A stretch of 51,959 bases of DNA, counting the filler, from Sphyrna mokarran (taxonomy: Eukaryota): NCBI GenBank assembly GCA_024679065.1. It is 2 parts of 2 records of this genome, joined end to end, with 100 filler letters (N's around TTAATTAATTAA, not from the genome) between each part and the next. Parts side by side here need not be neighbours in the genome. Positions count along the whole stretch, not along the records: positions 22,012 to 51,959 come from JAGIQG010000449.1; 1 more part is not named here. The stretch is one strand, 5' to 3'. The notes below the pieces were generated by a model. That model was given only the letters and a program-made list of their open reading frames with translations. It did not search any database and was not told where the DNA came from. The position numbers were made by a program, and so were the translations under genes. Shown here one piece after another: positions 25,596 through 26,080 of this stretch; the first letter of the stretch is position 1, and each line of letters starts with the position of its first letter.

Positions 25596-26041
25596 GTGAA
25601 AGACAGTGATATGGTGCAAAGCGCTTCCGATAGAGATTGTGGTACAAGGTAAAATCTGGATGGTAACGGGTCAAGTTTAACAGTTTGCATTGACAGAAAT
25701 ATCACTCATTTCTGAATAAAATTCTAGGGCTAGCTGACAAGAAAACTTCTCCATAAATGGAACACTAAACTATTTGACCTTGACTGATTGCAAACAGTTT
25801 CCATTTAGAAAACAGTAACTGTGAGATTGACAAAGCAGAATGGAGAAAGTCTCAGTTTGAGAGGCAGCACTGCCGTAGGAATGGAGAGCTGGAGTTCACC
25901 CAGAAAAGCAACAAAGTTTAAAAATAACGGGTTTTAAAAACTTCAGCGGGAATCTCAACCTTAAAAAAACACTTGACTTGTCCATGAAGGATTGGCAAGT
26001 GAAAGACAGAATCGTGTCTTACTGTGCACTACACTGGGAGC
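25596..26041 (+). pseudogene. TCR alpha/delta-like V gene segment pseudogene (leader exon ~25596-25648; V exon 25798-26041)
   Basis: Leader KTVIWCKALPIEIVVQ|gtaaaa, phase-1 intron, FR1 LTKQNGESLSL, FR2-like RQH..NGELEF, FR3 GFKNFSGNLNLKKTLDLSMKDWQVKDRIVSYCALHWE. Has an in-frame TAG, loss of the first Cys/Trp region and frameshifts. Confidence 0.75.
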
Positions 26042-26080
26042 CACAGTGAATGAGGTTCCCGCCAGCCTCACACAAACTCT
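26042..26080 (+). promoter_or_regulatory. V(D)J recombination signal sequence (23-type RSS)
   Basis: Perfect heptamer CACAGTG 26042-26048 directly after YCALHWE, then a 22-23-nt spacer and nonamer-like (C)ACAAACTCT. Confidence 0.75.

Follow-up and report, generated by a model that had tools for sequence, protein, structure and literature searches.

A broken V gene segment with an intact recombination signal heptamer, likely of TCR alpha/delta type, upstream of an orphan IgM fragment in Sphyrna mokarran

The DNA analysed here, referred to as the window, is a stretch of 51,959 nucleotides (filler included) from Sphyrna mokarran (assembly GCA_024679065.1). It consists of two parts joined end to end, of which the second (positions 22,012 to 51,959) comes from record JAGIQG010000449.1. 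This second part contains a broken V gene segment with its recombination signal sequence (RSS), here called V1, and further along the same strand the 3' fragment of an IgM gene. V1 and its immediate upstream region are made up of the following features.

25398..25432, + strand: 5' remnant, decayed, of a tRNA-Glu-like gene ahead of V1, identical at 31/35 positions to the tRNA upstream of V2 (described below)
25552..25565, + strand: promoter-like motif, 14/14 identical between V1 and V2
25596..25648, + strand: putative leader exon of V1, read from the sequence, in a block that is homologous in V2 and has a donor-like site there
25649..25727, + strand: putative 79-nt GT-AG leader intron of V1, with alternative AG sites near 25800-25810
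25728..26041, + strand: V1 pseudo-exon, 314 nt long and interrupted by stops and one or more frameshifts, statistically V-like in FR3 (25936-26031) only
26042..26080, + strand: V1 23-RSS, read from the sequence as CACAGTG, a 23-nt spacer and ACAAACTCT

The Glu label of the tRNA relic is our assumption from a TTC anticodon loop, and the promoter motif shared by V1 and V2 resembles the CRE-like decamer of TCR V genes. On reading the sequence, a donor GT at 25649 and an acceptor AG at 25726-25727 bound the intron. The leader exon is putative: no ATG occurs in its phase-1 frame, and reading from 25596 gives phase 2. The open stretch of V1 extends from 25879 to 26046 and ends in LDLSMKDWQVKDRIVSYCALHWE, with the Cys codon at 26023, and its C-terminal YCALHWE lies directly 5' of the RSS. 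The coding part is indeed wrecked, as had been noted from the sequence before. In the 5' half (25728-25925), shuffled sequences reach the score of V1 in 31/40 and 13/40 cases, so the true acceptor, Cys23 and Trp41 are not fixed by the present reading; the best parse would set Cys23 near 25863 and leave a short span from W to C, in a half that is not significant. The preliminary description of a leader exon, intron, V exon and RSS therefore stands as regards the GT-AG interval, the YCALHWE end and the heptamer, and is weaker as regards the leader and the 5' half, which does not rise above shuffles.

That FR3 belongs to a V domain is clear. When a 55-residue piece of V1 was compared with the PDB using phmmer, all 18 matches at E≤10 were V domains (best E 0.026). 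Every one of them is a VH/VHH or scFv, and TCR accounts for 0/18. A middle piece (25784-25918) gave no match in the PDB, and Pfam gave no V-set match for V1. A direct protein search with FR3 returned seven candidates, none at E≤10 and none a shark relative. A single match of FR3 among 1.84 billion representatives was discarded as summed noise, the protein being a tandem-repeat protein without an Ig domain.

The class of V1 was addressed with two profiles. Metagenome contigs were scanned for a YCAL motif combined with a 23-RSS, giving 23 loci with intact fish-type V exons, and a profile search gave 77 proteins, nearly all of them teleost TCR alpha/delta V or unnamed V-set proteins, together with one chimaera V; those named by class are TCR alpha/delta V. 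In these metagenome assemblies (L001-L023), intact TCR alpha/delta V arrays of fish, complete with RSS, occur as contaminating host DNA. The resulting TCR profile consists of 104 teleost domains, chosen with the motif and profile of V1 itself, and the VH profile of six shark and chimaera VH sequences; because of this selection and the imbalance of 104 to 6, the class assignment is biased toward TCR.

With that bias, the best match of the TCR alpha/delta profile in the window is 25936-26031 (14.5 bits, E 0.0014; next best 6.9), compared to 4.3 bits (E 1.7) for the six-sequence VH profile on the same FR3. In frameshift-aware scoring V1 reaches 29.6 with the TCR profile (shuffle maximum 15.6) and 22.4 with the VH profile (shuffle maximum 16.1), and 0/40 shuffles attain either score. 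Once the YYCAL columns are dropped, the scores become 16.2 for TCR (reached by 1/60 shuffles) and 13.1 for VH (reached by 4/60). The best pairwise FR3 score is 31.6 bits (47%) to a teleost TCR V, as against 22.7 bits to a VH, and the sole chimaera TCR-type V matches weakly (E 0.46). We conclude that V1 FR3 is a V-set sequence with the conserved Cys104, and V1 itself a disrupted V segment that carries an RSS. The TCR alpha/delta-like class that was originally proposed is likely rather than proven, given teleost references picked with V1's own motif.

The VH matches in the PDB, and the VH score well above shuffles, also fit the idea that V1 is an IgH-like V (TAILV, IgW/IgM VH or an intermediate lineage) that became separated from its D and J, and V domains intermediate between TCR and Ig are mentioned in section 6 of PMC12227049. 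However, V1 FR3 is only 31-42% identical to FR3 of IgM VH from close shark relatives (E≥1.4), whereas the Cmu4 exon reaches 95%. In addition, V1 ends in CAL and not CAR, there is no D 400 bp downstream, and a further RSS-like site, at 26232, has not been conserved in the paralog at 39.2-39.4 kb. We therefore consider an IgH-like origin quite improbable. The site at 26232 (CACAGTT-22-ACAAACCCG) was itself tried as a D segment and rejected, the paralog having another heptamer and about 23 more letters; related contigs have about 30 extra letters in the stretch around it.

The one real RSS-type site in this scaffold piece is that of V1, and it lies directly behind the best V match. Its heptamer (26042-26048) is perfect, and its nonamer (26072-26080) agrees with the consensus at 6/9 positions in the 23-nt register and 7/9 in the 21-nt register. 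There are seven perfect heptamers in 22012-51959, of which one is followed at 22-24 nt by an ACAAA-type nonamer, and among simulated regions of 29.8 kb, 10/200 contained such a combination of CACAGTG, 22-24 nt and ACAAA. The heptamer lies 19 nt behind the Cys codon, compared to 13-16 nt in 25/25 teleost matches; in one related contig this distance is 3 nt shorter. From this position, the RSS reads as V1's own.

The preliminary description laid some stress on the heptamer being perfect. The seven bases have a probability of surviving neutrally of 0.73-0.30 at divergences of 4-16% (estimated from three related contigs), and the segment was chosen for its RSS; a special meaning of the perfect heptamer is not supported. 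Its preservation thus needs no selection. Positions 4-6 of the nonamer are AAC in the 23-nt register, which does not fit the purine-A/T-purine motif tied to RAG binding at these positions (PMC12711392), so that the V1 RSS is probably a weaker site than the consensus. These observations bear on the suggestion that the RSS is under selection as a RAG substrate, serving as a decoy or pairing over a long range with TCR delta D, TCR alpha J or IgM D, independently of the coding part. The consensus heptamer and 23-nt spacer are consistent with it, as is the finding that none of the 40 differences listed, with 246 more in the full set, falls in the heptamer or nonamer. Against it stand the neutral survival probability, the misfit of AAC at nonamer positions 4-6, the absence of a 12-RSS from the window, and the report from nurse shark that inter-locus IgH rearrangement is rare and was unseen at pseudogenes by Southern blot (PMC2435157). 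Taken together, selection on the RSS seems to us extremely improbable.

No 12-RSS, D or J motif was found in the window, so that no transcript linking V1 to Cmu4 can arise locally; the proposal that the RSS could still serve as a RAG substrate is not supported as regards a product made at this locus. A RAG cut at the V1 RSS with a distant partner may occur.

The IgM fragment and the gene that separates it from V1 are as follows.

28843..33390, + strand: 7TM receptor gene of the rhodopsin family with two exons, in the stretch from V1 to IgM, apparently intact (Pfam 7tm_1, E 1.1e-14 on 32473-33387; first exon predicted from the ORF list)
44589..44980, + strand: orphan IgM Cmu4 with secretory tail, open frame, 95% to Triakis scyllium IgM, as fits a carcharhiniform-type shark
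47738..47866, + strand: IgM TM1 exon (tblastn E 1.5e-16)
48190..48198, + strand: IgM TM2 exon (Ile-Lys-stop), read from the sequence

From the end of the V1 RSS to the Cmu4 exon is 18,509 nt, on the same strand and the same scaffold piece, in agreement with the 18.5 kb and the shared orientation first reported. The IgM exons are present as described, though limited to Cmu4-secretory, TM1 and TM2: in a tblastn search of the window with 36 Ig heavy-chain proteins, matches were confined to Cmu4-secretory and TM1, and VH, D, J and Cmu1-3 are absent. The interval between V1 and Cmu4 holds the 7TM gene, which we take to be GPR139-like, and five tRNA genes to the left of the gap at 43220, with one tRNA to its right. 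No D or J lies within the roughly 400-bp spacing of IgM clusters from V1, nor within about 2 kb.

The IgM gene is broken inside the Cmu3-Cmu4 intron, within a contig and about 870 nt past the gap. Similarity to IgM introns begins at about 44500. It is preceded, in the same contig, by a retroelement end and a tRNA-Gln module, so that the truncation is not a product of the gap. In what is left of the gene (44589-48198) the frames are open, either splice option is available and a poly(A) signal is present; the CLVRGF motif has Arg at a position that is Gly in other IgM. A sequence labelled Aeromonas veronii (P0007) is 96% identical to shark IgM Cmu4.

Two junctions determine which of these features are genuine neighbours.

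21912..22011, no strand: linker N44-TTAATTAATTAA-N44, after which the scaffold piece with V1, V2 and IgM starts
42701..43486, + strand: module spanning the 43220-43349 gap, colinear with a contiguous copy at 23188-23894

The scaffold join at the 43220 gap, flagged in the preliminary description as a point on which the linkage could fail, is supported. Both flanks are colinear with the paralog at 23188-23894 (87% and 77% identity), and about 62 nt of that contiguous copy match the position of the 130 N in the gap. The join may unite two different copies of the module.

The linker is of another kind. It looks artificial, a six-frame-stop linker of the sort used in concatenating contigs; GC content is 53% to its left and 41% to its right, and vigilin-like exons stop at it. 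An AICDA (AID) coding stretch at 11131-11540 (+ strand) has APOBEC-family Pfam matches, and the segments that correspond to exons 2 and 3 of mammals form a single open frame with no intron. Because AICDA lies to the left of the linker, its nearness to IgM is likely artificial, and the idea that the two are linked was rejected. A vigilin-like gene (19162-21829, - strand) with at least four KH-domain exons adjoins AICDA in tail-to-tail orientation, and a 71-nt tandem repeat forms arrays, running in either direction, around AICDA (632-2208, 6323-7477, 10026-11087 and 19323-19680). To the right of the linker, a Pfam search of 112 further ORFs found no Ig or KH domain.

The origin of V1 is best approached through its second copy.

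22012..22468, - strand: V2, a paralog of V1 in inverted orientation, which comprises promoter, leader, intron and the beginning of the exon and is truncated where the scaffold piece begins
22543..22615, - strand: Glu-like tRNA gene upstream of V2 (ARAGORN, anticodon not called)
43492..43944, + strand: tRNA-Gln module; its paralogs lie at 38107-38556 (82%) and 24899-25336 (69%)

A self-blastn comparison of V1 and V2 gave 66.5% identity over 209 nt (E 6e-8), and an alignment of promoter motif, leader and intron gave 66% over 175 nt. The distance from tRNA to promoter motif is 154 nt in one copy and 156 nt in the other. No RSS was seen for V2 in 22012-22468, and its V score alone is not significant. 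The demonstrable duplicate is thus a block of tRNA-Glu, promoter, leader and V start, present in two copies of opposite orientation; since the inverted copy shares the tRNA-Glu, promoter motif and leader, the visible unit of duplication is tRNA plus V, and not V plus IgH. The region 22543-43611 contains eight tRNA genes (one Glu-like and unassigned, Asn, two Gln, two Val, Phe and Thr) as well as relics, in duplicated modules. Direct and inverted paralogous blocks also occur, pairing for example 36503-37399 with 39678-40562 and 26252-26611 with 38979-39320.

The preliminary description saw in V1 the relic of a joint TCR-V/IgH duplication unit. In its fullest form this would be a mixed cassette of tRNA genes, TCR V, 7TM gene and IgM that was duplicated as one throughout the antigen-receptor complex. 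V1 and IgM are on the same strand and their linkage is likely true, tRNA-Gln modules lie upstream of both, and by our own reading of Table S1 of PMC12227049 the nearest listed upstream V is a co-oriented TCR alpha/delta V at ≤70 kb in 4/9 white shark IgM rows. Set against this, V2 has the opposite orientation, the block common to the V copies is tRNA and not IgH sequence, and the IgM piece has a sudden start, inside the Cmu3-Cmu4 intron and after a retroelement end, which implies that its own upstream region was not copied with it. The duplicate that can be seen holds tRNA-Glu and V, and the IgM is a separate fragment with the 7TM gene and five tRNA genes in between; the joint unit is not borne out, and we regard the mixed cassette as unlikely.

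We consider it probable, with good confidence, that V1 is a dead V segment, likely TCR alpha/delta, which likely arose by local segmental duplication, along with a tRNA gene, within the antigen-receptor complex of the shark and is likely functionless, decaying neutrally near an independently broken IgM. In other words, it is most likely ordinary duplication debris. A tRNA-rich region would have been copied repeatedly in pieces, including the tRNA-Glu plus V block, the tRNA-Gln module and the IgM 3' fragment. V1 would have lost its frame and then decayed neutrally, with the RSS surviving because it is short. Any RAG cut at V1 would require a distant 12-RSS, and the joint would be out of frame and give no protein.

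Relatives of V1 occur in other sequencing data. Four of 24 listed runs were aligned, to 25450-27100 only, and depth is not a copy number here. All four are from other organisms and consist of contigs; they cover 29 or 30 of 30 bins and contain pieces at about 95% (likely orthologs) and at 84-87% (likely paralogs). In 2/4 of them, contigs are 84-96% identical over FR3 and the RSS. Among the 24 listed runs none is of RNA and none holds half of the query words. On the evidence of these contigs the V1 element is shared by related species, and probably multi-copy there.

In itself V1 is one more decayed V segment in a setting where TCR V and IgM clusters are known to intermingle, and matters little. 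It does add a carcharhiniform-type example, of a sort of relic that escapes ORF and Pfam annotation, and together with V2 it points to tRNA-Glu and V having been duplicated as one block. The literature searched contained no account of shark TCR V blocks linked to tRNA. As a long shot, one may suppose that tRNA-anchored cassettes built the shark antigen-receptor complex, such that TCR V with an upstream tRNA-Glu interleave with IgM clusters and a 23-RSS could reach a neighbouring IgM D, making reverse TCR V-IgH chimeras. If true generally, such cassettes or joints would explain the mixing of Ig and TCR in sharks.

Several known systems can be set beside the locus. In NAR-TCR, a NAR-type V comes with a D and J of its own, and a supporting V delta follows downstream; this arrangement is not seen at V1, with no D, J or second V downstream in the window. 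Nurse shark reportedly has both trans-rearrangement between Ig and TCR delta, and TAILV. The V1 locus is like these in having Ig and TCR segments in one region. The nurse shark chimeras, however, combine an IgH-type V with TCR delta D-J-C, whereas here a broken V, likely TCR-type, accompanies an Ig C with no D or J, and no local chimera is possible.

In the shark IgM minicluster (V-D-D-J-Cmu), V, D, D and J lie within 2 kb at a spacing of roughly 400 bp, and joining between loci is rare (PMC2435157). Cmu4, the secretory tail and the TM exons are IgM as in such a cluster, and the V has a 23-RSS. The locus differs in having no D, J or Cmu1-3, a V that is likely not VH-like, and 18.5 kb with a 7TM gene in between.

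The closest comparison is with white shark. Linkage of Ig and TCR in sharks, mentioned in the preliminary description, is already in print (PMC12227049, section 6 and Table S1): TCR alpha/delta-type V exons sit between IgH clusters in sharks and rays (Flajnik et al. 2025). V1 is far more decayed than the V exons of this complex, its IgM neighbour is Cmu4 and TM exons only, and its tRNA and 7TM neighbours have no counterpart in the main text of that paper, which has 0 matches to tRNA or GPR. What the two have in common is isolated V exons of TCR type (likely, in the case of V1) that point either way and lie tens of kb away from IgM loci that are pseudo or lack V. Table S1 of the same paper lists two 'IgM (missing V)' loci, and TCRadV and 'TCRadV pseudo' rows at 28-70 kb from 'IgM pseudo?' loci. 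On chromosome 27 an 'IgM pseudo?' locus has a TCRadV of the same orientation 28 kb upstream and two 'TCRadV pseudo' rows adjoining it, and LOC121270284, 286 and 287, adjoining 'IgM pseudo?' LOC121270490, provide an example of the same arrangement.
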